Below the pieces are notes generated by a model. The model ran no database searches. It saw nothing but the letters and a program-made list of their open reading frames with translations, and was not told the origin of the DNA. From NCBI GenBank assembly GCA_016840855.1, contig JAEORO010000031.1, positions 1 through 11,170 on the forward strand: a stretch of DNA of 11,170 nt, written 5' to 3'. The position numbers and the translations under genes are program-made. How positions within the stretch are numbered: the first letter of the stretch is position 1; each line of letters opens with the position of its first letter. The stretch comes from Candidatus Thorarchaeota archaeon. GTDB lineage: Archaea; Asgardarchaeota; Thorarchaeia; Thorarchaeales; Thorarchaeaceae. This document shows positions 1 to 11,170 of the stretch, in pieces.

Positions 1-507
1 AATTGCTGCATTTCTGGAGATTTTCAATGAGTCTGGGTCATTAATTTGTGTCATTCGAATGGAAAATACTAGCTGAATTATGCATGTGGCTACAATTGTC
101 CCCATTATTATCGCAGCAATCCAAGTAATCTCAACAATAATTTGGGATACACCGAGAAAACCGATGAAGCTCACAATGGTCGTGACAAGCAGGCTGATTT
201 CTCCTATGTAGAACAGATTCAACTTGTGATAGCCCGCTTCAGGTTCAATCACTTTAGCATAATCAAGTGTTGTCCATACTGAAAGAATGATTCCAACGAA
301 AACCAATATTAATCCTGGAACTGCGGCAATGACTGTGAAGAAGGGGTCAAGAGACCATATCGCTTCTCCTGGATCACCGTGATAGACATTTGTGATGAGA
401 TAGTCAAACCTAAGTCCAGTTAGGACTATCCAGAGAAAGCCCCCACCAAAAATGCCGAGAGAAACCAATGCTGGCCCTAATGGGATTCGTCCCAATTCTA
501 ACACCAC
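1..507 (-). CDS. Multi-pass membrane protein, hypothetical (3' end runs off the window; not in the ORF track)
   Basis: Manual translation gives an open frame from GTG (507 or 504; earliest possible GTG 522) to base 1: (V)VLELGRIPLGPALVSLGIFGGGFLWIVLTGLRFDY...FFTVIAAVPGLILVFVGIILSVW...ISLLVTTIVSFIGFLGVSQII...WIAAIIMGTIVATCIIQLVFSIR. It has about four hydrophobic segments. Confidence 0.8.
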   Translation of the reverse strand, partial: MVLELGRIPLGPALVSLGIFGGGFLWIVLTGLRFDYLITNVYHGDPGEAIWSLDPFFTVIAAVPGLILVFVGIILSVWTTLDYAKVIEPEAGYHKLNLFYIGEISLLVTTIVSFIGFLGVSQIIVEITWIAAIIMGTIVATCIIQLVFSIRMTQINDPDSLKISRNAAI

Positions 508-535
508 GCATATGTTATACACCCTTTAGCTTAAT

Positions 536-556
536 CAAATCTCGCTCTCCGCACCA
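536..556 (+). repeat. tRNA 3'-end copy 1 (att-like), probable tRNA-Leu
   Basis: CAAATCTCGCTCTCCGCACCA parses as part of the T-loop (CAAAT), 5-nt T-stem 3' strand, 7-nt acceptor 3' strand, discriminator A and CCA. It is 20/21 identical to 777-797. Confidence 0.85.
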
Positions 557-589
557 ATTTCATCTATTTTCCGGAAATCATGATTTTGA

Positions 590-730
590 TTAGCTTCCAG
601 CAAGTTCTGCCTCACAGTCTTGTTGCTGAAACCACAGAATACCTCGTCTATAGTTGATGATAGTGAATAAAATAAGAAAAACAACAAAAGCTGCTATGAA
701 GAGTGGCCAATTAAAGGAGTCAAACTGCAT
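590..730 (-). CDS. Small single-pass membrane protein, 46 aa (not in the ORF track)
   Basis: ATG at 730 to TAA at 590: MQFDSFNWPLFIAAFVVFLILFTIINYRRGILWFQQQDCEAELAGS. One strong hydrophobic helix is followed by RR, and the ORF fits between repeats 1 and 2. Confidence 0.7.
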   Translation of the reverse strand: MQFDSFNWPLFIAAFVVFLILFTIINYRRGILWFQQQDCEAELAGS

Positions 731-752
731 CAATACTCACGGTTCAGTATAC

Positions 753-776
753 CGAAGATTAATCGATAAATCTTCG
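753..776. promoter_or_regulatory. 24-bp near-perfect palindrome abutting repeat 2
   Basis: CGAAGATT-A-ATCGAT-A-AATCTTCG is self-complementary except A761/A768. It lies between divergent genes and ends immediately before base 777. Confidence 0.5.
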
Positions 777-797
777 CAAATCTCGCCCTCCGCACCA
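777..797 (+). repeat. tRNA 3'-end copy 2 (att-like), probable tRNA-Leu
   Basis: CAAAT CTCGC CCTCCGC A CCA implies a parent tRNA starting GCGGAGG with discriminator A, which resembles archaeal tRNA-Leu. The parent tRNA is not in the window. Confidence 0.85.
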
Positions 798-862
798 GCT
801 CTTACTCGTAAGAAAATCCTCAAATCTATTTGTTAACTTATTCTCAGCAGGGGGATTGATTC

Positions 863-1396
863 ATGCAAGAGTCTCCTATTTCCTATTCCTACGATAAACA
901 AAGACTCATTGGAATAATCATCCCACTACTTTTACTAGGTTTTGTTGCATTCGCCTCACCAATTGCTGTCCTCGTAACCACTGAAGAACCACCTCCTTTT
1001 CCACCCCCGGGTTGGGAGTCAAGTGTCACGATTTATCTTTGGGCTGCAAGATTTACTTCCGCATTTATACAAACAGAGTATGGTTTAGAAGGCGGGATCA
1101 CAAATTTTCATACAATCCCATTTGTAATCATGACGATGCTGTATTTCATTATCCACATTGCTGTGGGGTTGAGAATAGTCCCAGCTAGATACGGTGCAGG
1201 AGTTGCTGTCATAGTCCTTATAATTTGGGTAACCATCTGTCATTTAATCTATGGCACTCTACAAGAGTGGTCACTAATCCAAATTCCAATACTACCAATA
1301 GTAGGAGTTACTATTCTGCTGGTTGTATATGGGAACCAAGTGTTTCGGCTCTCACCCACCACGCCAGCTTCTTCCTTCTATCTATCAGCATCGTAG
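863..1396 (+). CDS. Multi-pass membrane protein, hypothetical
   Basis: 177-aa ORF with about four hydrophobic segments and a Pro-rich loop (EEPPPFPPPGW). GGGGG lies shortly upstream of the ATG, and the stop is 13 bp before repeat 3. Confidence 0.8.
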   Translation: MQESPISYSYDKQRLIGIIIPLLLLGFVAFASPIAVLVTTEEPPPFPPPGWESSVTIYLWAARFTSAFIQTEYGLEGGITNFHTIPFVIMTMLYFIIHIAVGLRIVPARYGAGVAVIVLIIWVTICHLIYGTLQEWSLIQIPILPIVGVTILLVVYGNQVFRLSPTTPASSFYLSAS

Positions 1397-1409
1397 TTTC
1401 TGCATCAGC

Positions 1410-1430
1410 CAATTCTCACCCTCCTTACCA
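1410..1430 (+). repeat. tRNA 3'-end copy 3, degenerate
   Basis: CAATTCTCACCCTCCTTACCA matches 777-797 at 17/21 ungapped, in the same orientation, with ACCA retained, directly after a gene end. Confidence 0.65.
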
Positions 1431-1523
1431 CTCTTTCTAGCAATTTCATCATTTCGAGAATATCTGAAGTCAATCCTTAAGTGAAACAACCAAGATATGA
1501 AATTTACAAACAAGATTGTAAAA

Positions 1524-1688
1524 GGACCCACCCCAGGTGCGACGAGGCAAATTCGCATCCCTAATACAGGTGGGTCCGAGGGAGGGAGTTGTCTTCTGAA
1601 GTCTGATGGGACTCGACAAAGCATTGTGATCCAAGACGTGCATTGTTTTTACTGCGAGTCCCTGGTGGAAGGCGTGAATCTTGGATTC
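1524..1688. ncRNA. Putative structured non-coding RNA (long hairpin plus pseudoknot or switch), family unknown
   Basis: Complementary pairs are GGACCCACC 1524-1532/GGTGGGTCC 1569-1577, GGTGCGA 1536-1542/TCGCATC 1553-1559, GGGACTCG 1608-1615/CGAGTCCC 1655-1662 and ATCCAAGA 1629-1636/TCTTGGAT 1679-1686. The last two pairs are interleaved. The minus strand has TTTTATAT (1718-1711) upstream and TTTT (1523-1520) downstream. Confidence 0.55.
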
Positions 1689-1710
1689 ATTCATTAATGC
1701 GAAGGAGCTA

Positions 1711-1718
1711 ATATAAAA
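1711..1718 (-). promoter_or_regulatory. Candidate TATA box for a minus-strand transcript starting near 1690
   Basis: TTTTATAT on the minus strand, about 22-30 nt upstream of the first stem of the structured element. Confidence 0.35.
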
Positions 1719-1849
1719 TCGTCATGAAAACAATTGCTGCTTTTTCAACCAGCACATGCAAAATTATGGTACATTTAACACAAATTTGGAACTACGGCAA
1801 TGTATAAAGGTCAAGATGGTAGGGAGCATCTTAGACCCCTTGGGAGTGA

Positions 1850-2857
1850 TTGAGAACGTCATCTCGAAGAATTGGAATAGTCGGAACAGGCAACATGGGT
1901 CGAATACATGCACGTATTCTTAGCGACTTAGGCGCTCTTGTGGGTGTAGCTGATACTGACCATGCTACTGCGCAACAGGTAGCAAAAGAGCACAACACAA
2001 TTCCATTCAACGACTTTGAATCAATGATTGATGAAACAAAACCAGACGGTGTTGTAATTGCCACACCAACATCAACTCATGCAAATATAGCCCGAACAAT
2101 AGCCACAAAATATGAGGATATCAAGGGAATACTCATCGAAAAACCTCTAGCCAGCACATTAGAAGATGGAAAAAAGGTTGCAGAGATAGTGAAGAAACGA
2201 GGAATCGTCACTTTAGTTTCGCACTCAGAGATCTACAATCCAATTGTTGGGAGAGCACTATCACTCATAAAAACTGATGCAATTGGGAGTCCTCAGACTG
2301 TTATTTACGATAGACGAGGATTTGTACAACCAGAGAGAATCCCATCGCTTGGTGATGTCTTTGAAGATCTAGGCGTACACGACTTTGACATCATGGCAAG
2401 GATTAGTAACGGACCTGCAAAACTCTATGCTCAGAGTGACACTGTTGGTGGAATTCATAATAGTGGAGAGATTATGGTGAAGTTTGTTTCCGGAACAAAG
2501 CACATCTTTCACCTCTCTAGACAGTATGCTGGACGCCGGCGATACATGGACGTTTCAGGCTCAAAAGGGGCATTGGTTCTTGATTTGTTCGGTCAGATAA
2601 TCAAGGTACAGCATTTGGATCAAGCACCTGTTGCTAAAGGTGACACAATACAGCTTCCTGAGAGAGGAGCAACAATCAAAGTCTATGGTGAACCAGTAAG
2701 AGAAGTACTCAATGACTTTTTACGATGTATAAAGACAGGTGAAACTCCAAGGGTTAGCATAGATGATGCTCTATGCGCATTAGAGATTGTGGAAGCTTCA
2801 AGAAAGAGCGCAGAATCAGGAGATGTAGTAGATATCGAGATAAAACCTAGGAGATAA
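1850..2857 (+). CDS. Gfo/Idh/MocA family NAD(P)-dependent oxidoreductase
   Basis: Rossmann motif IGIVGTGNMG, plus ATPTSTH, EKP and DLGVHDFD motifs. TTG start, with TATAAA at 1803-1808 upstream. Confidence 0.92.
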   Translation: MRTSSRRIGIVGTGNMGRIHARILSDLGALVGVADTDHATAQQVAKEHNTIPFNDFESMIDETKPDGVVIATPTSTHANIARTIATKYEDIKGILIEKPLASTLEDGKKVAEIVKKRGIVTLVSHSEIYNPIVGRALSLIKTDAIGSPQTVIYDRRGFVQPERIPSLGDVFEDLGVHDFDIMARISNGPAKLYAQSDTVGGIHNSGEIMVKFVSGTKHIFHLSRQYAGRRRYMDVSGSKGALVLDLFGQIIKVQHLDQAPVAKGDTIQLPERGATIKVYGEPVREVLNDFLRCIKTGETPRVSIDDALCALEIVEASRKSAESGDVVDIEIKPRR

Positions 2858-4136
2858 CTTTTCCATTCAGATGGGTTCGTTTTGATGATGTAATCTCAAC
2901 ATCAACGATTGTTCCTAGTTTCAAATCCTCGTTAACAACAACTATCTTGTAAGACTCATTTCGTCCCAGCATTCCACCTTTTGAACCCTTCTCGGTAATC
3001 ATGATTGGACCAGACCATCCAACCCATGCTTCATTGGATTCTGTGATAATCTCATTTGCGATCTTTGTCAAAATCCTACTGCGGTTCTTCTTCACTGAAG
3101 TATCTACCTTTTCATTTGATTGTGAGGCAAGAGTATTAGGCCTATCGCCATACTTTGAGATATTGATGACCGATGGTCTTACACTTTGAATTAATTCAAG
3201 GGTTTCTTTGAAATCGGTTTCATTTTCACCCGGAAATCCAACTATGATGTCAGTAGCGATTGTTGGATTCTTGAATCGTTTCCTGACCCTCTCAACAATG
3301 TTCACCCAATCACTGGCAATGTACCTGCGTTTCATTGTTTTCAGAATCTTATCACTACCAGACTGGAGGGGGATATGAAAGAACTTAAAGAAATGCTCAT
3401 TTTTCATCGACTCTAGAAGGTCGTTGATTGAGCTCATCACAATGTTTGGATTAAACATACCAAGTCGATACTTGTGATTTCCTTCAATAGTAGCTATTGA
3501 CTGCATAAGCCCAGTAAGTGTTTCACCAGTGTCATTTCCAAACACTGCAGCATCTTGAGATGTTAATCGAATCTCACGGTATCCAAGATGGACACATCGC
3601 TCGATTATTCGATGGATGCTTGAAATAGAATAGCTTCGTACCTTTCCGCGGGCGAATTTCACAGCACAGTATGCGCAACTCCCAAGGCAGCCTTCACAGA
3701 TTGGGATGGTGCAAATTACACTATCAGGTGGTCCTACCAACCATTTTAGTTTGTAAGAATTATCAGATTCTATTTGCCGAATTCCTCTCGCACCATGGAG
3801 AATACGCTGAACAATAGATGCCAGTGTGTCAATTGATTGAGGACCAAGTAATGCAGCATATTCTGGAATTGCCTTCTCGATTCGATCAGGAGAGATTTTT
3901 GGCAGACATCCGGTAACAATGATTGGAGTACTGCCCTGTCCCAGTTGTTCAAGTCTATGAATGATTTTGTCCTCTGTTGGTTCCTTAACACCGCACGTGT
4001 TCAGTAAAATCAGCTCGGCTTCACGGATGTCCTTTACACGTTGTCCTTCAATAGCTTCAAGGCGTCCTATAATGATGTCAGAATCAGCCGCGTTTAGCGA
4101 ACACCCATACGTTTCAAGATAGTATTTGAGGACCAT
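2847..4136 (-). CDS. mtaB: Radical SAM tRNA methylthiotransferase, MiaB-like, archaeal MtaB/CDKAL1 type (t6A37 to ms2t6A37)
   Basis: UPF0004 N-terminal Cys motifs (ETYGC, NTCGVK, TGC), CxxxCxxC (CLGSCAYC), HIPLQSGS, TDIIVGFPGE and a C-terminal TRAM-like domain. Confidence 0.88.
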   Translation of the reverse strand: MVLKYYLETYGCSLNAADSDIIIGRLEAIEGQRVKDIREAELILLNTCGVKEPTEDKIIHRLEQLGQGSTPIIVTGCLPKISPDRIEKAIPEYAALLGPQSIDTLASIVQRILHGARGIRQIESDNSYKLKWLVGPPDSVICTIPICEGCLGSCAYCAVKFARGKVRSYSISSIHRIIERCVHLGYREIRLTSQDAAVFGNDTGETLTGLMQSIATIEGNHKYRLGMFNPNIVMSSINDLLESMKNEHFFKFFHIPLQSGSDKILKTMKRRYIASDWVNIVERVRKRFKNPTIATDIIVGFPGENETDFKETLELIQSVRPSVINISKYGDRPNTLASQSNEKVDTSVKKNRSRILTKIANEIITESNEAWVGWSGPIMITEKGSKGGMLGRNESYKIVVVNEDLKLGTIVDVEITSSKRTHLNGKVIS

Positions 4137-4147
4137 ACACTCAACAC

Positions 4148-4441
4148 CTAGCCGCCTTGAACATGAGGAAGGATGGCAATTTCATCCCCATCTTGAATGA
4201 CTATATCAATTCCTCCCAGGGTTTCAACATCTTTCTTGTTAAGCATCACAATCAGATTTCCACTGATATTATCATTGTGCATTATAAGTTTCCTGAGTTC
4301 TTCTCCTCCAATCTCAACAACTCTATTGACAACTTGTCGGACTGTTGTATTGTCAGGAACCTCAATGTCTATGATTTTTTCTTTCAGATGCCTTCGCACT
4401 GGTCCGAACGACTTGAACTTGACTTTCAAATGGTTAACCAT
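4148..4441 (-). CDS. MoaD/ThiS/SAMP/Urm1-family ubiquitin-like protein
   Basis: About 97 aa with a beta-grasp-type pattern (VKFKSFG...IVMLNKKDV...DGDEIAILPHVQGG) and C-terminal diglycine. Start placed at ATG 4441; the ORF track extends it to 4456. Confidence 0.9.
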   Translation of the reverse strand: MVNHLKVKFKSFGPVRRHLKEKIIDIEVPDNTTVRQVVNRVVEIGGEELRKLIMHNDNISGNLIVMLNKKDVETLGGIDIVIQDGDEIAILPHVQGG

Positions 4442-4461
4442 TGCAGTTGAAAGCAAGAGGA

Positions 4462-4833
4462 CTATTCAGCCTTTTGATAATACGAAATGACCTCATCCAC
4501 AAGAGCATCAACGACCGTAATGATCTCCTCAATCTCGCTTCGACTGGCATTATCATAGTGAATACCAACAGTGACAAAAGTGGGAACTTCTAGAGCTTTG
4601 CAGATTTTCTCTGCAGATGTGTTGGCCACAACATAGTCCTTGTGTCCAGGTAGAGTGAGAGTACTCACACTTATGGTTGTAGCATCTCGGTAGTGGCTCT
4701 TTGTTGGATATGCTGTGGCAACACCACCGATATGGTGTTCATCACCGCCATATATGGCAATTAGAAGGTCTCTCCCAATCTCTTTTGCTTCAAGACGGAT
4801 ATTGTGCCGGCCAGCTTTTCTTTCGAATATCAT
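4462..4833 (-). CDS. LpdD-like (prenylated-flavin chaperone / proteasome-assembly-chaperone-like) protein
   Basis: 123 aa with motifs G-x-DL...GG-x3-HIG, PGHKD and GIH-x-D-x-A, recalled as characteristic of the LpdD/PAC_bac family. Confidence 0.7.
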   Translation of the reverse strand: MIFERKAGRHNIRLEAKEIGRDLLIAIYGGDEHHIGGVATAYPTKSHYRDATTISVSTLTLPGHKDYVVANTSAEKICKALEVPTFVTVGIHYDNASRSEIEEIITVVDALVDEVISYYQKAE

Positions 4834-4884
4834 TGTTGTTTTGGTAGCTGAACTTACCTCTAATATTTTCGGTGCGCCATTTGC

Positions 4885-6453
4885 CTATTCGTTGCTTTCC
4901 TCTTTCTGGTGCTGTTGGAACATCCTATATGAGAGTGTCATGGTCTTCGGATGTGCAGATCTATACTCATCCAGAAGACCAACAGATGTGCTGTATGGTG
5001 CATTCTTCACTTTTTCAGGATCTTCATGAGCTTCTTTCGAGATTGCCTCAAGTGTGAAGATGAAGAAATCAAGATCTTGACGAGACTCTGTTTCCGTTGG
5101 TTCAATCATCAAGGCCTCAGGGACTATGAGAGGGAAATATACAGTGGGAGCATGTACACCAAAGTCAAGCAGACGTTTAGCCACATTCATGGCAGTGACT
5201 TCAGTCTTTTTCTTCAGCTCTTCAGCTGAGATGACACATTCATGCATCCGAGGAGCATCTTGTGAGTATGGAAGAGTAAATCCGGGTATATTTCGCACAT
5301 GATGTGCAACATAGTTAGCATTCAGTACTGCCACCTCAGATGCTCTTTCGAGACCTTCAGCACCTAGGGCATAGATATACGAATAGGCTCGAATTAATAC
5401 GCCAAAGTTTCCATAGAAGCTTTTGACTTTTCCAATTGACCGTGGATAGTCATAGTCCAAGTCAAAACTACCATCTTCCTTCTTCACAACACGTGGGACT
5501 GGGAGAAAGTCAATCAACTTCTCAGTGACACCGACTGGACCAGCTCCTGGTCCTCCTCCACCGTGTGGTGTTGAGAACGACTTGTGAAGGTTCAGGTGAA
5601 CAACATCAAAGCCCATATCACCTGGTCTGACCTTGCCCATTATCGCATTGAAATTGGCACCATCGTAGTATACCAGTCCACCAGCATCATGCACAATATC
5701 AGTGATCTCTTCGATATCTTTCTCAAAGACTCCTATTGTGTTAGGGTTGGTGAGCATAAGACCAGCTGTCTTTGGACCAATAACCTCTTTCAAAGCATCT
5801 AAGTCTACTAACCCTTCCTTACTTGAGGGGATTACGACTACTTTGTATCCAGCCATCGCAGCTGATGCTGGATTTGTGCCATGTGCAGCATCTGGAATAA
5901 GCATCTCAGTTCGCTGCTCACAGTTTTCTGTGAAGCAACGATGAAACTCACGTATCATCATGACTCCAGTCCATTCACCCTGAGCGCCTGCAGCAGGCTG
6001 AAGGGTGACAGCATCCATTCCAGTTATCTCACCAAGCCATCGTTCCAACTCCCACATCATTTCAAGAGCTCCTTGAGTCATAGAAGAGTCTTGAAGCGGA
6101 TGCAACCACGCAAAACCAGCTGTACTAGCAGCCCAATTGTTTTCAGCGGGATTATATTTCATCGTGCAGCTGCCCAATGGATAAGTGCCAAGGTTCACTG
6201 CGAAGTTCATCTGTGAGAGTCGAGTATAATGACGAGCAATCCCAGGCTCTGAAACCTCAGGTATTCTTGGTGATTCCTTTCGAACCATCTTATTTGGCAT
6301 AACATCCTCAATGCTACCAACCACCTTTTTCACATCAGGCTCAGGGGTTGGGAAAACATGTCCCACAATTCCAGGCATTGATCTTTCAAAGATTAGAGGT
6401 TCAATCCACTTTGCTTGGCGTACCTTGGTGTCATCAGGTCTGTCTTGCTTCAT
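4885..6453 (-). CDS. gcvPB: Glycine dehydrogenase (decarboxylating) subunit 2
   Basis: Motifs YPLGSCTMKYNP, QPAAGAQGE, AHGTNPASA, YYDGAN, PLP-lysine motif NLHKSFSTPHGGGGPG and IEPTETE. Confidence 0.97.
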   Translation of the reverse strand: MKQDRPDDTKVRQAKWIEPLIFERSMPGIVGHVFPTPEPDVKKVVGSIEDVMPNKMVRKESPRIPEVSEPGIARHYTRLSQMNFAVNLGTYPLGSCTMKYNPAENNWAASTAGFAWLHPLQDSSMTQGALEMMWELERWLGEITGMDAVTLQPAAGAQGEWTGVMMIREFHRCFTENCEQRTEMLIPDAAHGTNPASAAMAGYKVVVIPSSKEGLVDLDALKEVIGPKTAGLMLTNPNTIGVFEKDIEEITDIVHDAGGLVYYDGANFNAIMGKVRPGDMGFDVVHLNLHKSFSTPHGGGGPGAGPVGVTEKLIDFLPVPRVVKKEDGSFDLDYDYPRSIGKVKSFYGNFGVLIRAYSYIYALGAEGLERASEVAVLNANYVAHHVRNIPGFTLPYSQDAPRMHECVISAEELKKKTEVTAMNVAKRLLDFGVHAPTVYFPLIVPEALMIEPTETESRQDLDFFIFTLEAISKEAHEDPEKVKNAPYSTSVGLLDEYRSAHPKTMTLSYRMFQQHQKEESNE

Positions 6454-7856
6454 TGTGCAACACCTCCCTCTGACACAATATTTTCCACAGCTTGTATTAG
6501 TTCGTCGATGTTTTCTTTGCTATGAATCTCTGTCACGCAAAACAACATTGATTCTCCCAATGTGGGGAACTCTTCAGTGAGTATTTTACCGCCGTGGATA
6601 CCCCTCTCAAGAAGGCCTTCATGTACATCTTTGGCTGTGACCCCATTTTCAAATCGGACTACAAATTCTTTCCAGATAGATTCTCCAATAGCAGGTGCTT
6701 TTACTCCATGAATTCTGTCAAGCATTCTAGCAGTGTAGTTAGCGTTGAAGGTGATGGTCTCGCTGACTTGTTTCAAACCAGTTGGACCAAGAAGTGATAT
6801 GTAGATTGTCGCAGTAACAGCAGCAAGTGCCTGATTGGAACAGATGTTGCTTGTAGCTTTCTCCCGACGAATATGTTGCTCTCTGGGACTTAATGTTAAT
6901 ACGAATCCATCTTCATAGGGTTCTTTTTCTGTTCGTGTCATTCCGACCAATCTACCAGGCATCTGGTAAATGAGTTTACGATCATTTGTACATCCAAAAA
7001 TACCAAGTAGAGGACCACCAAATGTCATAGGAGAACCTAGGTGTTGACCTTCCGCGACAACTATGTCTGCACCATAATTACCGGGCGGTCGAATGAGTCC
7101 TAAAGACAAGACATCGACTCCAACCACCAGCAACGCTTCCTTATCATGAACGATCCTACTTATTTCATCAACCTGAGTTTCGATGAATCCTAGATAACTC
7201 GGATTTTCGATATATACTCCTGCAACTTGATTGTCAATTTTTGACTCAAGGTCAGCGAGTGACATTAGACCAGTGTGTTTGTCATAGTCTATTTTCTCAA
7301 GTTCAATATCAACTGGTTCGGTATATGTCTGAATGACCTTGTAGTGTTCAGGATTGATGGTACCTGGGACAAGGAATCTCGAGCGCTGCTTCTTGACACG
7401 TGCAGACATTCTCGCAGCTTCAGCGACTGCAGTTGCCATATCGTACATTGATGAGTTCACAACATCTATGTCTAGAATCTCAGCAAGTAGGCTCTGATAT
7501 TCAAACAGTGTCTGAAGCATGCCTTGGCTTATCTCAGCCTGATAACTTGTGTAAGATGTAAGAAATTCCGATCTTGTAGCCAGCGCAGGAACAATGGCAG
7601 GGATGTAATGTAACCCTATACCAGCACCAAGAAAGACACGTCCAGTGTCTGCAGGTTTGTTCTTAGCCGCTAGTTCTTGTATCCTCCGTGTGACTTCAAT
7701 CTCGCTGTGAGAACCTGGAAGATTCAGGTCACGGGGTAACCTGAATTTCTCAGGTATGTTCGAGAACAAATCGTCGAGACTTTTCTTACCAATAGACTCT
7801 AGCATTTCTTTCTCAGTTGCTTTTGTCATTGGTATCCAAGGATGCTTGTATTCCAT
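6450..7856 (-). CDS. gcvPA: Glycine dehydrogenase (decarboxylating) subunit 1
   Basis: Motifs FLGAG, EFLTSYTSYQAEISQG, NSSMYD, FGGP, MPGRLVG and REQHIRREKATSNICSNQ. It has an ATGA overlap with gcvPB. Confidence 0.97.
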   Translation of the reverse strand: MEYKHPWIPMTKATEKEMLESIGKKSLDDLFSNIPEKFRLPRDLNLPGSHSEIEVTRRIQELAAKNKPADTGRVFLGAGIGLHYIPAIVPALATRSEFLTSYTSYQAEISQGMLQTLFEYQSLLAEILDIDVVNSSMYDMATAVAEAARMSARVKKQRSRFLVPGTINPEHYKVIQTYTEPVDIELEKIDYDKHTGLMSLADLESKIDNQVAGVYIENPSYLGFIETQVDEISRIVHDKEALLVVGVDVLSLGLIRPPGNYGADIVVAEGQHLGSPMTFGGPLLGIFGCTNDRKLIYQMPGRLVGMTRTEKEPYEDGFVLTLSPREQHIRREKATSNICSNQALAAVTATIYISLLGPTGLKQVSETITFNANYTARMLDRIHGVKAPAIGESIWKEFVVRFENGVTAKDVHEGLLERGIHGGKILTEEFPTLGESMLFCVTEIHSKENIDELIQAVENIVSEGGVAQ

Positions 7857-7997
7857 TTTGGAGTCCTCTGAACATTAGGATGCATGAGGCGCAGCTAGTC
7901 TCCCAAATAGCCTTTCGGGTTGAACATCAGAAATAGTTGTGTGAATAATTTTTTAACGGCAACCGATTATTCGACGCCAGTCACAGATGTGATAGAA

Positions 7998-8312
7998 ATG
8001 AAACGTTGGTTGATGGATATCCTCGCTTGCCCGATAAGCGACTGTAGAAGTGAGCTTGCTCTGGAGGTCTTTACCTCGCATAATCTAGAGAGTGATGGTG
8101 AAGAAATCGAGGAAATCGACGAAGCGTTAATAACATGTCCGAAGTGTGGCAGATGGTATCCTGTCATTGATGGGATTGCTTGTATGCTTCCCGACAATCT
8201 CAGGATGGATGGTAAACAAAGGATAGAGGAAACTAAGTTTCTCGAGCGTTGGAAGGAGCGAATTGCTTCTGAGATTCTAGACAATGGTGTTCCTTTCAGC
8301 TTAAAGTCCTAA
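7998..8312 (+). CDS. trm112: Trm112-family methyltransferase activator
   Basis: MKRWLMDILACP...C...LITCPKCGRWYPVIDGIACMLPD is the Trm112 zinc-binding signature. The likely start is ATG 7998 rather than 7920. Confidence 0.9.
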   Translation: MKRWLMDILACPISDCRSELALEVFTSHNLESDGEEIEEIDEALITCPKCGRWYPVIDGIACMLPDNLRMDGKQRIEETKFLERWKERIASEILDNGVPFSLKS

Positions 8313-8336
8313 ACCTGAGTAAATGGGTTTACCTAT

Positions 8337-8412
8337 AGCCCCGTGGTGTAGCGGTCCAGCATAGCGGGTTTTGGCCTCGCTGACGGAGGTTCAAATCCTC
8401 CCGGGGCTACCA
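8337..8412 (+). tRNA. tRNA-Gln (anticodon TTG at 8371-8373), intronless, CCA encoded
   Basis: 76-nt cloverleaf with acceptor AGCCCCG/CGGGGCT (A1-U72, the archaeal Gln hallmark), anticodon stem GCGGG/CTCGC with loop TTTTGGC, T arm GGAGG-TTCAAAT-CCTCC and terminal ACCA. Confidence 0.97.
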
Positions 8413-8495
8413 CTTTTCCAAGAATTAAAATCGATGGACGCGATTCTTCTCTCGCAGTGGTTTTTAGTAGTTGATAAGAATCGGGGCTGGCAAGA

Positions 8496-10109
8496 ATGTA
8501 TCAAAATCGCCAAGAATCAAAGAAATCCTATTTCTCACTAAGAAAAAAGGGTAGGATAGCACTAATCTTAGTGATACTCTTGGCGATAGTATCATCCAAA
8601 CAGACATTATTGTTTTCAACGGATATTCAAAATAGTAGATTTACAACAATTCCCAGTAATCAAGTGTTTCATGAGAGTATTGAAATTGCCTCGGACAACG
8701 ATTTCATCCTACAAGGATGGCCAGGAAATGGGAGTGTTTCAAATCCCTTCCTAATTGAAGAACTCGAAATCAGGTCTGATGATGAGTGTATTAGGATAAG
8801 CAATACCAGAAGTCATTTCGTAATTCGCAATTGTTTCTTATCATCCATTCTCCGACAATATCATGGAACTGGTGTATACTTGAGAAATGTGACTCATGGA
8901 ACAATCGAATTGTCAAAAATATCTGGTCTTGGAGTTGGAATATACGATCGACGCAGCACCAAGAATGTCTATCGTAATAATACAATCGAAGACACATGGG
9001 ATGGAATTCTTCTTGGGTCTTGCATTGACAATATTGTTGCAAATAATTCGGTGACGGGCAATCAAGGAGGGTACGACATTCATGTTTTAGATTCTCGAGA
9101 GTGTTCGGTACTTGGAAATTTCATAAGTGGAATTGTTTTCGCGTTTTCTACTAACTGTACAGCAGGATGCAACTCTGGTCTTGTAGAAGGATTGAATATT
9201 TACAGTGAAAACCTGACTCATTGGCTGCATCGGATTTATGACAACTATTTCAATGGAAACATGCTTGGCTACTTCAGAGATACTTCTGACTTAATTATCG
9301 ATGGTAATCTCTATTCTCAACTGATATTAGTGAATGTAACAAGAGCAATAGTCAGCGGTGGAGTATTTCGATATCTATCGATGGGCGTTCAGATTATTCA
9401 TTCTGCTGATTGCAAGCTATCAGACATTGTTTCTGAGAGAAGCCTTCAAGCTGGAGTCAACATTAAGAGTTCGATAAATTGCACCATCATAAATAGTAGT
9501 ATGAATGAGAATTCGGATGGAGTGCTTGTTTCAGGTTCAGAGAGAATAAGAGTTGAAGGAACTAAATTGAATAACAATTCATTTTATGGGATCGGAGTTG
9601 ATACTTCTAATAGCTGCCATTTCATTGGAAACACAATATCGAATAATTGGCTAGGCATTTCAATCAATATGTCGAACAACTGCACGATATCAGAAAATGA
9701 CATCTTTGAAAATGACAAAGGGATTGTTCTATCCTCATCAAATCAGAGTTTAATCACAAATAATGTTGTGCACAAGAATGAGATTGGAATCTTGTTAGAA
9801 ACGACAACATCAAATAACTCGATATATTGGAACACCTTCATTTGGAATACTGAAAAGAATGCAGTTGATGATGGCACTTTCAATAGCTGGGATGATGGTA
9901 TTAGCAGGGGGAATGTCTGGAGCGATTATGCTGGATGTGGCCCTTATACAATTCCTGGACTAGCTCAGAGTGTTGACAGATTTCCTATGGCAATAGGATT
10001 TCAGATCCCAAATGTAGTAATTCCAGTTCTACTGATCATTATAACGACTATAGTATTGTTGTATTCACAGAAACAACGATTTCGTGAATTAAAATCTTCA
10101 AAGAATTAG
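8496..10109 (+). CDS. Membrane-anchored right-handed parallel beta-helix (NosD/CASH-repeat) surface protein
   Basis: N-terminal basic plus hydrophobic segment, WPGNGSVSNPFLIE, many N-x-I-x-x-N-x-x-GI repeats, GNVWSDY...DRFP, and a C-terminal hydrophobic helix followed by a basic tail. Many N-x-S/T sequons. Confidence 0.88.
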   Translation: MYQNRQESKKSYFSLRKKGRIALILVILLAIVSSKQTLLFSTDIQNSRFTTIPSNQVFHESIEIASDNDFILQGWPGNGSVSNPFLIEELEIRSDDECIRISNTRSHFVIRNCFLSSILRQYHGTGVYLRNVTHGTIELSKISGLGVGIYDRRSTKNVYRNNTIEDTWDGILLGSCIDNIVANNSVTGNQGGYDIHVLDSRECSVLGNFISGIVFAFSTNCTAGCNSGLVEGLNIYSENLTHWLHRIYDNYFNGNMLGYFRDTSDLIIDGNLYSQLILVNVTRAIVSGGVFRYLSMGVQIIHSADCKLSDIVSERSLQAGVNIKSSINCTIINSSMNENSDGVLVSGSERIRVEGTKLNNNSFYGIGVDTSNSCHFIGNTISNNWLGISINMSNNCTISENDIFENDKGIVLSSSNQSLITNNVVHKNEIGILLETTTSNNSIYWNTFIWNTEKNAVDDGTFNSWDDGISRGNVWSDYAGCGPYTIPGLAQSVDRFPMAIGFQIPNVVIPVLLIIITTIVLLYSQKQRFRELKSSKN

Positions 10110-10217
10110 ATAAAAATCTAAAGCATATTCATGATAGTTGAAAACTAGTGCAATGTAAAACGTCCAGTCTTGTTCATGGTGCGAAGAATGAAAAACCCAC
10201 AGAGGGATTGTCAATTT

Positions 10218-10242
10218 GGTTCAAATCCTCCCGGGGCTACCA
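10218..10242 (+). repeat. Duplicated 3' end of tRNA-Gln (attR-like)
   Basis: 25/25 identity with 8388-8412; the flanking bases differ on both sides. Confidence 0.95.
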
Positions 10243-10248
10243 TATACA

Positions 10249-10737
10249 TTAGTACTTGAATTGATAGTCACCCACTTGAATTTTTGAGAGGTTTTTTTCT
10301 CCAGACCAAGGTTTCCGTACTTCAACAAGATTTAGAACGTCATAACCTCGCTTCTGCAGGAATTGAATAATTCCAGCGTTATTTGGATGAACCCAATTAT
10401 AGACGGTTTCTTCTTCCAGTTCTTCGGCAAGATGTTCGACTTCAGAGTATAAGGCAGATCCAACCCCTTTTCGTCGTGCTGATGGTGTTACGTATAAAGA
10501 CTCAGCCCAAACGACTGTCTGTTCAACTTTGCAGACTATGTATCCGAGAATCTCATTATTCGCTTCCGCTACGTGAATAGAGTATTTTGGCGACAGATAG
10601 CAATCGAGTTCGCTTCTTGCTGCTTCAAGATCAGGTTCTTTTGAGAGTGATTTTAGGCTCGAGAGGAACACACGATATTCAGCGATGAGTGGAATGACTT
10701 GACCCTTGTCTTCGGGGCGATAAGTTCTGATTTCCAT
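10249..10737 (-). CDS. GNAT family N-acetyltransferase
   Basis: Acetyl-CoA motif A (LYVTPSARRKGVGSAL) and N...FLQKRGY. Confidence 0.9.
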   Translation of the reverse strand: MEIRTYRPEDKGQVIPLIAEYRVFLSSLKSLSKEPDLEAARSELDCYLSPKYSIHVAEANNEILGYIVCKVEQTVVWAESLYVTPSARRKGVGSALYSEVEHLAEELEEETVYNWVHPNNAGIIQFLQKRGYDVLNLVEVRKPWSGEKNLSKIQVGDYQFKY

Positions 10738-10826
10738 ACGAACAAATCTGTTTCATGAGATAAGTGCCTTTGGTCAAACTATATGTTGCAGTCTAGACGA
10801 GGAACGTTAAATTAACTGAACTATGA

Positions 10827-11170
10827 TTATTTCTCTGTAGGACTAAGTCCCTCACCAGCATCAGCCATCTGGACGCGGAATAACCTCTTCACATGAGAAA
10901 GAACAAGACGGTCTCCATTGACAAGAACTTCAATCTCGATGTTGTCACCTAAGCCGGATGTGGAGATTTTCTTCTCTAAGACTGCTTCCACTTGAAAAAC
11001 TCTTGCTGTGTTATCCATAGCAACTGAACTTTTCAATGGTTTCTTCTCTCCACGTTCAAGAATTACATTGTTAATCGCCATCGCACTTACGCTATGAATA
11101 TCGACCTTACCTTTCTGAAAAGGAACCTTTGTGCGACCCTTCGTTAAGTCACAGCCATCTCCAAGTTTTG
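10827..11170 (-). CDS. HD-superfamily phosphohydrolase (COG3294-like), C-terminal part; 5' end outside the window
   Basis: The frame stays open upstream of the listed ATG 11081 to the window edge: KLGDGCDLTKGRTKVPFQKGKVDIHSVSAMAI...GEKKP...VFQVE..L.KKI..SGL. This matches the recalled D-x-x-D-x-x-KGR / IHSVSA family pattern. Confidence 0.72.
   Translation of the reverse strand, partial: KLGDGCDLTKGRTKVPFQKGKVDIHSVSAMAINNVILERGEKKPLKSSVAMDNTARVFQVEAVLEKKISTSGLGDNIEIEVLVNGDRLVLSHVKRLFRVQMADAGEGLSPTEK

Follow-up and report, generated by a model that had tools for sequence, protein, structure and literature searches.

The window, that is, the whole 11.2-kb contig of an archaeal MAG (11,170 nucleotides), holds two arrays of short repeats, one of tRNA-Leu type and one behind a tRNA-Gln gene (Table 1). 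The Leu-type repeats, which read CAAATCTCGC(T/C)CTCCGCACCA, occupy 536-556 and 777-797; sequence comparison within the window revealed a third, degenerate copy at 1410-1430. All repeats of the window, in both arrays, start in the T-loop and stop at CCA, a property described in the initial annotation and confirmed by repeat comparison. That annotation also placed the repeats at two different tRNAs within 10 kb; there are indeed two arrays, but Gln-TTG is the sole tRNA gene in the window. The contig begins inside the Leu-type array, and the parent tRNA of these repeats lies off the contig; its type is indicated by three tRNA-Leu isoacceptors (C209, C250, and C8) that have the same 3' end. The stretch between the arrays (1850-8312) consists of conserved, syntenic core genes and is outside the feature. 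In agreement with the earlier claim that the window contains no recombinase, no recombinase domain was found among its ten largest ORFs.

Table 1. Coordinates of the repeat cores, cassettes, and associated genes in the window
Feature	Position	Strand	Description
Cassette cut by contig start	1..535	-	ORF 1..522 (-), multi-pass membrane protein, 174+ aa
Core	536..556	+	tRNA-Leu 3' end copy, T-loop to CCA, 1 mismatch
Shortest unit	557..776		221 bp between 20-nt cores; small ORFs only
Core	777..797	+	tRNA-Leu 3' end copy, exact from CAAATC to CCA
Cassette	798..1409	+	ORF 863..1396 (+), 177-aa product with about 4 predicted membrane segments and no match to a Pfam family
Degenerate core	1410..1430	+	76% to the copy at 536
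tRNA-Gln(TTG)	8337..8412	+	CCA encoded; attachment core formed by the final 22-25 nt (8388-8412)
Gln cassette 1	8413..10217	+	ORF 8496..10109 (+), 537 aa, NosD/right-handed beta-helix
Core	10218..10242	+	exact copy of the 25-nt 3' end of tRNA-Gln
Gln cassette 2	10243..10806	-	GNAT acetyltransferase gene 10249..10737 (-)
Probable decayed distal core	10807..10826	+	TTAAAT...CTATGA; from junction comparison
Conserved flank gene	10827..11168	-	similarity with the empty site starts again at 10827

The membrane protein truncated by the contig start has one homologue (54% identical) carried between cores in a unit of locus L127 and another (58%) in the C209 array, at its distal end, and homologues of the 177-aa protein (68% and 57%) occur in the same array of two relatives (G006 and G002). 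The expectation of one gene per unit is borne out by these discrete single-gene modules but not by the 221-bp unit, in which the ORFs are only 47-50 aa long; one of them (590..733, minus strand, 47 aa) has a single hydrophobic segment. Similarly, the four cargo proteins originally named are of predicted membrane type or have a beta-helix domain of surface type (the NosD-like protein has hydrophobic segments at its N- and C-terminus), but the Gln array, taken at first for one enclosed gene, includes an overlooked second cassette with a GNAT gene of cytoplasmic type, the distal core of which has probably decayed.

Both Gln cassettes are missing at the Gln site in all 19 relatives compared. G001 has a NosD-like homologue (32-38%) whose insert sits on the opposite side of the tRNA, and in G005 (contig C101) two Gln cores enclose a GNAT that is 66% identical to the one in the window. 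Because the flank gene begins within ~40 bp of the end of tRNA-Gln in 15 of the 19 same-genus loci compared, the 2.4-kb stretch separating the two in the window (2414 bp) represents an insertion. In the closest relatives, the stop codon of the flank gene is found 0-8 nt past the CCA of tRNA-Gln and thus marks the empty site, and smaller inserts occur at tRNA-Gln in G014, G003, and G007.

The data consist throughout of MAGs and metagenome contigs. As to phylum, the GcvPA protein of the genome is nearest to clusters of Bathyarchaeota/Nitrososphaerota, one cargo homologue occurs on a Promethearchaeota record, and VPS28 (PF03997) gave no match in a search that returned none for its controls either. 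Searching the own genome with the 3' 20-mers of its 43 tRNAs (37 distinct) at up to 3 mismatches yielded 38 extra matches versus 1 for reversed queries, and the repeats are therefore not a product of chance; the reversed pattern of the Leu 20-mer had 0 matches in 28 genomes and in 87 genomes. Arrays are present behind 8 of the 43 tRNAs, always downstream and on the same strand, so the pattern is genome-wide, as had been proposed. An empty and a filled site can be compared directly at a tRNA-Cys pair (C60 and C225, respectively), where flanks that are 92% identical differ by 835 bp plus a 25-nt core. In the tRNA fragments, the T-stem is without its 5' half and the acceptor without its 5' strand, and the start position in the T-loop is constant. 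An origin of such fragments from split tRNA genes, tandem duplication of tRNAs, or chance was rejected on these grounds. All 43 tRNA genes found encode their CCA, which makes a repeat ending at CCA uninformative with regard to mature tRNA.

The arrays extend across the genus: two or more copies of the Leu core lie within 5 kb on one strand in at least 20 of the 22 listed genomes, and Leu-core arrays also occur on many metagenome contigs. The scenario that the two loci of the window are isolated cases, with large integrase-bearing islands in relatives, did not hold, as the arrays are widespread and such islands were absent from these sites in relatives. Amongst 101 loci, there are 82 tRNAs, 113 fragments, and 5 cores at contig edges, and the full tRNA is the first core in 38 of 52 arrays listed (the others start with a fragment or a contig edge). 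The 92 unique units have a median length of 581 bp, with 71 of them no longer than 1 kb. The longest ORF occupies a median of 82% of the unit, and a single ORF fills at least 60% of it in 76 of the 84 units of up to 1.7 kb; a few units measure 2-4.6 kb and contain defence-type genes. Cargo genes face both ways relative to the array (36 same, 48 opposite). By a crude hydropathy count, 49 of 78 cargo proteins (63%) have a predicted membrane segment compared with 27% of size-matched ORFs, which favors the initial idea of a system for varying surface proteins; however, this idea is too narrow, since the cargo also comprises GNAT, CxxCxxCC, PrcB_C, OLD-type nuclease, HEPN/AbiV, and thioesterase proteins. 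The suggested check for homologous cargo at different tRNAs revealed no close homologues, the best similarities being 26-34% identity in a comparison for which the non-Leu arrays came from one genome.

The edges of identity between modules are constant, at (T)TCAAATC on the left and CCA on the right. A CxxCxxCC cassette found in 8 loci, at array positions 1 to 4 and sometimes directly beside the tRNA, is alignable solely between its two cores, with unrelated flanks on both sides. In the C201 and C209 arrays, core variants (including a G-type T-loop and another T-stem) are interleaved, a pattern more easily reconciled with cores carried by the cassettes, or with exchange between arrays, than with duplicated ends of the resident tRNA. 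Cassette identity is incongruent with that of the neighbouring core gene, a comparison comprising four genomes only. Every core is followed by a pyrimidine tract of 8-9 nt, and no conserved positions were detected upstream of the cores. The half-site next to the T-loop on the cassette side shows no conservation, which is unusual for the attP of a tyrosine recombinase and counts against a site-specific reading.

The first (newest) core is often unlike the tRNA, and later cores are exact; decay of the cores with distance from the tRNA was considered and rejected (rank versus mismatches, rho -0.09, p 0.46). Cores appear better conserved than third codon positions in a set that was chosen by core detection and is consequently biased. 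In an unbiased set of 14 orthologous cassettes, the cores range from exact to lost at a decay rate compatible with neutrality, meaning that the cores do not establish ongoing activity. Terminal overlaps of the kind expected from free circular cassettes were found in 0 of 80 metagenome loci.

The search for an enzyme returned no candidate within the arrays. PF00589, PF16795, PF00239, and PF00078 had 0 matches in the own genome, which is 92% complete, and tyrosine or serine recombinases, reverse transcriptase, and Cas1 were all absent from it. In the genus, PF00589 is represented by 20 matches in 8 of 28 genomes, none of which was on a contig with a Leu core among those listed. A tRNA-like core was missing from 16 of the 17 integrase contigs fetched; scanning these contigs and 15 PF00589 loci for tRNA 3' cores revealed only one true tRNA, which lies beside a tyrosine recombinase at a contig end in G018 (C202). 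Reverse transcriptase and Cas1 are each present in 1 of 28 genus genomes. No recombinase accompanies the cassettes in the array ORFs tested: there was no integrase or integrase fragment among the 25 commonest of 57 families matched by 90 cargo ORFs, no integrase among 10 further ORFs of large units, and none when all ORFs of at least 80 aa in 100 loci (L066-L165) were searched with phmmer. In phmmer searches with ORFs of the PF00589 loci, the matches were confined to non-integrase neighbours. Viral contigs contained 0 Leu A-type, Leu G-type, or Gln cores; an Ala-like core matched 3 large viral contigs, where the matches are probably the tRNA genes of those contigs.

The favored reading, considered somewhat probable, is that these loci are tRNA-anchored, additive arrays of miniature, mostly single-gene, non-autonomous cassettes that arose by site-specific integration. 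Each cassette would enter by conservative site-specific recombination in the T-loop or 3' part of a tRNA gene. Integration would regenerate the tRNA, and a displaced copy of its final ~22 nt (TCAAATC...CCA) would come to lie beyond the insert. Further rounds of integration, combined with losses and inter-lineage exchange, would then produce the rows of 1 to 7 cores spaced 0.24-4.6 kb apart. A cassette presumably carries its own core and pyrimidine tract, and the tract would act as the tRNA trailer when the cassette adjoins the tRNA. Since a recombinase is found in neither the arrays nor most genus genomes, it must act in trans or belong to an unrecognised family; a supply in trans would most likely come from transient viruses or plasmids, and the process may still be continuing.

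Alternatively, the units could be decayed remnants of successive integrase-bearing viruses, plasmids, or islands that inserted at tRNAs and were deleted down to one gene and an att repeat. Repeated tandem use of tRNA att sites is well documented, as are scattered partial tRNAs (passages of 10.1101/2020.12.28.424599 and PMC6563490). Tyrosine recombinases do circulate in the genus, in one case beside a tRNA, some cores are decayed, and the few larger units with defence-type genes would be expected from such a history. This explanation is nevertheless unlikely, since with units so regular in size and single-ORF content, deletion would hardly have halted each time at a gene and a core. In addition, the ORFs tested from about 100 array loci revealed no integrase or fragment of one, and the boundaries of the CxxCxxCC cassette are exact in all 8 loci, including beside the tRNA.

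Fixed repeat edges on both sides would also result from a staggered-cut, target-duplicating integration similar to that of casposons or CRISPR adaptation, in which a coreless insert is joined to a ~22-nt T-loop-to-CCA segment duplicated by gap repair, and the origin of the core of each cassette would need no further explanation. Casposons insert at the 3' ends of tRNAs and do so in tandem. A passage of PMC6563490 likewise refers to casposons in tandem. This mechanism is quite improbable here, however, given the rarity of Cas1 in the genus and its absence from the own genome, as well as the lack of terminal inverted repeats or conserved cassette ends. Moreover, with first cores often unlike the tRNA and variants interleaved, the mechanism would have to be supplemented by exchange at a later stage or by insertion into internal cores. 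Similarly low probability is assigned to homologous or microhomology recombination as the only process, with the 22-nt cores serving as portable blocks of homology after DNA uptake and no dedicated enzyme. The failure to find a recombinase, the incongruent cassette identities, and the differing neighbours on both sides of a conserved cassette are all consistent with such exchange, which could also overlay site-specific integration, but it leaves unexplained how a gene first gained a core and why the left edge in the T-loop is constant behind different tRNAs. Finally, capture of RNA, suggested by the initial annotation, in which cDNA would be either primed from or attached to the 3' ends of mature tRNAs and yield one-gene units with repeats stopping exactly at CCA, is highly improbable because CCA is genome-encoded, reverse transcriptase is missing from the own genome and nearly so from the genus, cargo lies in both orientations, and the fixed T-loop start resembles that of DNA att sites.

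If the cassettes are mobile, they would provide this archaeal lineage with a main route to gain and swap small accessory genes (e.g., membrane proteins, acetyltransferases, defence genes), and an enzyme that inserts gene-sized DNA precisely behind tRNA genes would await discovery. This would matter for understanding how uncultured archaea expand their pangenomes and how integrons and other cassette systems originated, and possibly for developing site-specific insertion tools. Even as mere footprints, the units differ from the kb-scale islands reported to date in being very small and regular, and they offer exact markers for gene flow between populations in metagenomes.

The arrays resemble both bacterial integrons and tRNA-linked islands, but without a recognisable recombination enzyme. 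The openly accessible literature searched contained no account of archaeal tRNA arrays built from single genes and lacking an integrase. The initial impression of an undescribed archaeal system stands to that extent, but bacteria have additive islands that are anchored at tRNAs and contain tRNA-fragment repeats, as passages of PMC4898812 and 10.1101/2020.12.28.424599 document. Archaeal viruses and plasmids of the SSV, pNOB8, and SNJ2 types share the attachment at tRNA 3' ends, the direct repeats, and the re-use of sites, but they encode their own integrase (PMC5861418; PMC6563490), the smallest cryptic element cited in the latter measuring 2.6 kb with its integrase. The window and its relatives exhibit an intact tRNA with a displaced 3' copy as direct repeat and empty sites in relatives (tRNA-Gln, tRNA-Cys), as in islands formed by tyrosine integrases, but no integrase in the window, the own genome, or the array ORFs tested. 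The additive flexible genomic islands of Alteromonas, as portrayed in sections of PMC4898812, share the tRNA-gene hotspot and accessory cargo and consist of bacterial gene-cluster cassettes with integrases, ICEs, or MGIs involved. Here, tRNA-adjacent hotspots with tRNA-fragment repeats and cassettes that vary between close relatives are likewise observed, but in an archaeon, with one-gene units of median 0.58 kb, up to 7 cores, and no recombinase found. The tycheposon islands of Prochlorococcus (sections of 10.1101/2020.12.28.424599) use the 3' part of a few tRNA genes and have stacked elements with partial tRNAs between them, further partial tRNAs scattered through the islands, and mostly material without element genes, as here, whereas tycheposons themselves are kb-scale and carry their own tRNA-specific tyrosine (or serine) recombinase and replication genes. 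An element of this type, with a tRNA-specific recombinase and a replication module, was not found in the cargo families examined.

The CIMEs of ICE families are att-flanked, integrase-less, mobilised in trans, and form tandem accretions with an autonomous element. The arrays share with them the att repeats, the lack of own recombination genes, and the tandem accretion, but CIMEs derive from a known ICE, are kb-scale, and have an identified helper integrase, unlike the cassettes here. Integrons, which are also reported in Archaea (10.1101/2022.02.06.479319), have in common with the arrays the rows of small, mostly one-gene modules of promoter-poor size, each closed by a recombination site, and a diverse cargo, often of no known function, that includes GNATs, small membrane proteins, and defence genes. 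They differ in that no intI lies beside the arrays (in keeping with the lack of PF00589 in the own genome), the attC hairpin is replaced by a tRNA 3' end from which the 5' T-stem half is missing, cassettes have mixed orientations instead of a single one behind a shared promoter, and the anchor is a functional tRNA gene. It is possible, though doubtful, that the arrays constitute a host-level gene-capture platform of this (possibly Asgard) archaeal lineage that uses the 3' ends of several tRNA genes as attachment sites for single-gene minicassettes, by way of an unrecognised recombinase family or a recruited host enzyme, and would represent an independently arisen functional analogue of integrons.

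The repeats listed in the initial annotation are present in the window, which is an entire contig (C127, 11170 bp), and comprise three 21-nt copies of Leu type, one of them degenerate, and one copy of the last 25 nt of tRNA-Gln that matches it exactly. Such copies, running from the T-loop to CCA, are termed cores (fragments, when outside a full tRNA), and the stretches between them units or cassettes. The parent of the 21-nt cores lies off the contig, which starts within the array, and is assigned on sequence grounds to tRNA-Leu because the GAG, CAG, and TAG isoacceptors (contigs C209, C250, and C8) have exactly that 3' end. The genes between the two arrays are ordinary (Gfo/Idh/MocA oxidoreductase, MiaB-like radical-SAM enzyme (rSAM), PAC-like chaperone, GcvP subunits, and a Trm112-like protein), with synteny kept in relatives. 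The 420 bp from the degenerate Leu core to the Gfo gene hold short overlapping ORFs only and may represent an older, decayed unit; in relatives, 0.4-3.3 kb separate the last detectable core from Gfo. Two weak Rfam matches in the window (sR32 and PhrS) were taken as chance, their scores being far under the gathering thresholds. The source archaeal MAG (G000; 3.36 Mb, 259 contigs, G+C 42%) is 92% complete with 6.3% contamination. Every sequence considered comes from a MAG or a metagenome contig; at least two related populations are mixed in the G000 bin.

Coordinates of the array features and loci discussed (window positions unless a contig is named)
Feature	Position	Remark
Leu-type cores, 21-nt tRNA 3' end	536-556; 777-797; 1410-1430	third degenerate
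Pyrimidine tracts after CCA	557-565; 798-806; 8413-8421	window examples
C/D-box sR32 match	1383-1456 (-)	E 0.98
Degenerate core to Gfo gene	1431-1849
PhrS match	1786-1946 (+)	E 0.48
Inter-array stretch	1850-8312
tRNA-Gln(TTG)	8337-8412	sole tRNA gene in window (ARAGORN + Rfam)
tRNA-Gln to flank gene	8413-10826	in order: NosD/beta-helix gene, exact core copy, GNAT gene, 20-nt apparent decayed core
Gln core, exact 25-nt copy	10218-10242
Flank gene	10827-11168	empty-site homology picks up again at 10827
tRNA-Cys haplotypes, G000	C60, 2030-2459; C225, 374-1830	empty; filled
Second Leu locus, G000	C209 (L041), 1-10220
G001 Gln locus	G001:C21 (L032), 934-8008	oriented
G005 Gln array	G005:C101 (L228), 600-2026
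Core-free paralogue, G000	C126, 10499-10822

The arrays extend well beyond the window. The genome has 43 tRNA genes (Infernal and ARAGORN combined), all encoding CCA; many of them contain introns, and a 2026 preprint is said to deal with CCA-adding enzymes in Asgard archaea. The 37 distinct tRNA 3' 20-mers of G000 gave 38 extra matches (at most three mismatches) versus one with reversed queries. Of these, 18 follow a tRNA that shares their contig and strand, and three resemble tRNAs that escaped detection. Among the other 17 are two Leu cores from the window and a number of orphans with three mismatches, possibly chance hits. Eight of the 43 tRNAs have an array behind them (Val-GAC on C100; Gln in the window; two on C161; one on C249; Ala-GGC on C201, Leu-GAG on C209, and Cys on C225, with five, six, and two fragments, respectively), and the window's Leu array is additional; units in this genome span 221-2590 bp and mostly hold one ORF. 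Contig C209 carries a diverged second copy of the window's tRNA-Leu/array/Gfo/rSAM locus with another cassette set (amino-acid identity 84% for Gfo and 79% for rSAM), and probably derives from a second population in the bin. The Leu 20-mer was found in all 28 genomes of the genus (2-18 copies each; none for the reversed pattern), and among the matches listed, 20 of 22 genomes have at least two same-strand copies within 5 kb (not G012 and G041). A syntenic locus, running from tRNA-Leu through one to seven cores to Gfo and rSAM, occurs in 13 relatives. In a class-wide scan (87 genomes, 17 genera), arrays were most frequent in this genus and were also seen in g19 and g22, and the 22-nt core, when used to scan metagenomes, returned at least 115 stretches, from which 80 loci were retrieved.

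The Trm112/tRNA-Gln neighbourhood was compared in 19 same-genus genomes with the tRNA and flank gene both readable (G005, where only the initial 32 nt of the tRNA are on the contig, was left out). The flank gene begins within ~40 bp of the tRNA-Gln end in 15 of the 19, its stop codon falling 0-8 nt past CCA in the closest relatives, and 2414 bp separate the two in the window, whose Gln site thus holds an insertion. The GNAT unit is a separate cassette within it: a 66% identical GNAT sits between two Gln cores in G005. Other inserts at this site measure ~1.3 kb (G014), ~0.5 kb (G003), and ~0.1 kb (G007). In G001, ~7 kb lie between Trm112 and tRNA-Gln. A ~13-nt 5' fragment of the tRNA remains next to Trm112, which places this insertion on the 5' side; a NosD-like protein and a nucleotidyltransferase are among its cargo, and no recombinase was found in it by Pfam. 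A second clean pair is found within the G000 bin, where the flanks of two tRNA-Cys haplotypes share 92% identity: in C60, the gene for a 119-aa membrane protein directly follows the tRNA, and in C225 an 835-bp unit, which lacks a long ORF, and a 25-nt core are inserted exactly at CCA. Overall, few genomes have an occupied Gln site; pairs of Ala cores occur in several genomes. In the G005 array, cores from two variants of tRNA-Gln stand together, one with a CCTGG and one with a CCTCC T-stem, and the first unit and the window's NosD cassette open with identical words.

Across 101 loci, 200 cores were distinguished, of which 82 belong to full tRNAs, 113 are fragments, and 5 lie at contig edges. 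Of the 52 arrays listed, 38 open with a full tRNA that has same-strand fragments behind it, and the other 14 with a fragment or at a contig edge. After duplicate removal, the 92 units have a median length of 581 bp (IQR 483-830), 71 of them being no longer than 1 kb and 8 longer than 2 kb; cores with more than three mismatches escape detection, and old units therefore fuse into larger apparent ones. The longest ORF spans a median of 82% of the unit (84 units up to 1.7 kb), oriented with the tRNA in 36 cases and against it in 48. The 97 top ORFs form 54 clusters, and Pfam searches of 90 cargo ORFs identified CxxCxxCC (10), PrcB_C (8), GNAT (5), and OLD-type nuclease (2) families, with single cases including LVIVD, ApbA, thioesterase, and TPR, and the majority without a family. 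Larger units additionally carry HEPN/AbiV and beta-propeller proteins. In C201, inspection by eye suggested an N-terminal TIR-like motif, with a neighbour that looks methylase-like. The initial annotation had proposed surface-protein cargo; at least one membrane segment was counted in 49 of 78 unique cargo proteins versus 27% of 1466 size-matched genome ORFs, a crude hydropathy count on crude ORF calls whose enrichment is statistically overstated, as homologous cassettes are not independent. Paralogues of cassette genes at core-free places (CxxCxxCC 42% identical, GNAT ~53%; G000:C126, G001:C3, G007:C29, G003:C16, and G017:C50) could be source genes for cassettes.

The units have sharp boundaries. 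At eight loci, the alignable part of the CxxCxxCC cassette begins just past the upstream CCA and stops at the downstream core, with unrelated neighbours on either side; the cassette stands right behind the tRNA in two loci and after one to three cassettes in the others. Its similarity between genomes is incongruent with the adjacent Gfo (four genomes only): G024 is the outgroup by Gfo (72-73%), yet its cassette is the closest (85-87%). In nearly all fragments, the match to the tRNA begins at (T)TCAAATC (the two exceptions, on C100 and C249, are ~45 and ~60 nt long), and no conserved positions were found upstream of cores. Every core, in a tRNA or a fragment, is followed after CCA by an 8-9-nt pyrimidine tract (G ~2%), probably a tRNA trailer/terminator carried by each cassette.

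This fixed T-loop edge, together with restored tRNAs and empty sites, is the classic mark of site-specific integration at the T-loop sublocation of tRNA genes, reportedly as set out by Williams in 2002. The initial annotation had offered a recombinase in trans or RNA-based capture. We lean slightly towards the former, with the units as non-autonomous cassettes, because the payload is unusual (one small gene, no integrase, many stacked, genus-wide). Each cassette would bring its own core and trailer, and an enzyme acting in trans would integrate it site-specifically into the T-loop sublocation of a tRNA gene. Decay of larger elements is an unlikely source of the units; no recombinase, transposase, or reverse transcriptase is among the commonest 25 of the 57 families matched in the 90 cargo ORFs. 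Target duplication at a staggered cut is more doubtful still: core variants are interleaved in the C201 and C209 arrays, which favours cassette-borne cores or inter-array exchange over simple duplication. Recombination acting on the cores alone is rated just as doubtful. The RNA route is highly improbable, with reverse transcriptase matched in 1 of 28 genomes.

No integrating enzyme was found with the families searched. PF00589, PF16795, PF00239, and PF00078 have zero matches in G000, and across the genus PF00589 is matched in 8 of 28 genomes and Cas1 in 1 of 28. The 20 genomes free of PF00589 include one 97% complete in 50 contigs; a XerA-type recombinase is therefore undetectable there too. 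No Leu core lies on the contigs of the 20 integrase matches among the matches listed, and 16 of 17 integrase contigs scanned lack a tRNA-like core. The four genomes with at least three integrase matches are the four with most Leu cores, a coincidence that is only a lead, since they are among the more fragmented bins. Separately, a 2.7-kb contig (G020:C116; L048, L056, and L060) holds three tyrosine-recombinase genes in tandem, resembling recombinase-in-trio elements, and may be a mobile element or contaminant. Counted against continuing activity of the arrays are the lack of polarity in core decay, decay compatible with neutrality, and the absence of circular cassettes and of viral contigs with Leu or Gln cores in the material searched. 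Three large viral contigs (L218-L220; 50-304 kb) match the Ala-type 22-nt core exactly, which most likely belongs to their own tRNA genes.

A full-text literature search, with most subscription journals and the supplements outside it, turned up no account of tRNA arrays in archaea whose units hold one gene and lack an integrase, nor is one given in the accessible parts of two papers on mobile elements of Asgard archaea (PMC8813620; 10.64898/2026.08.12.739948). The tRNA-anchored additive islands with tRNA-fragment repeats of Alteromonas (PMC4898812) and tycheposon-seeded islands (10.1101/2020.12.28.424599) are the closest known kinds to the present arrays, and integrons provide the nearest functional analogy.
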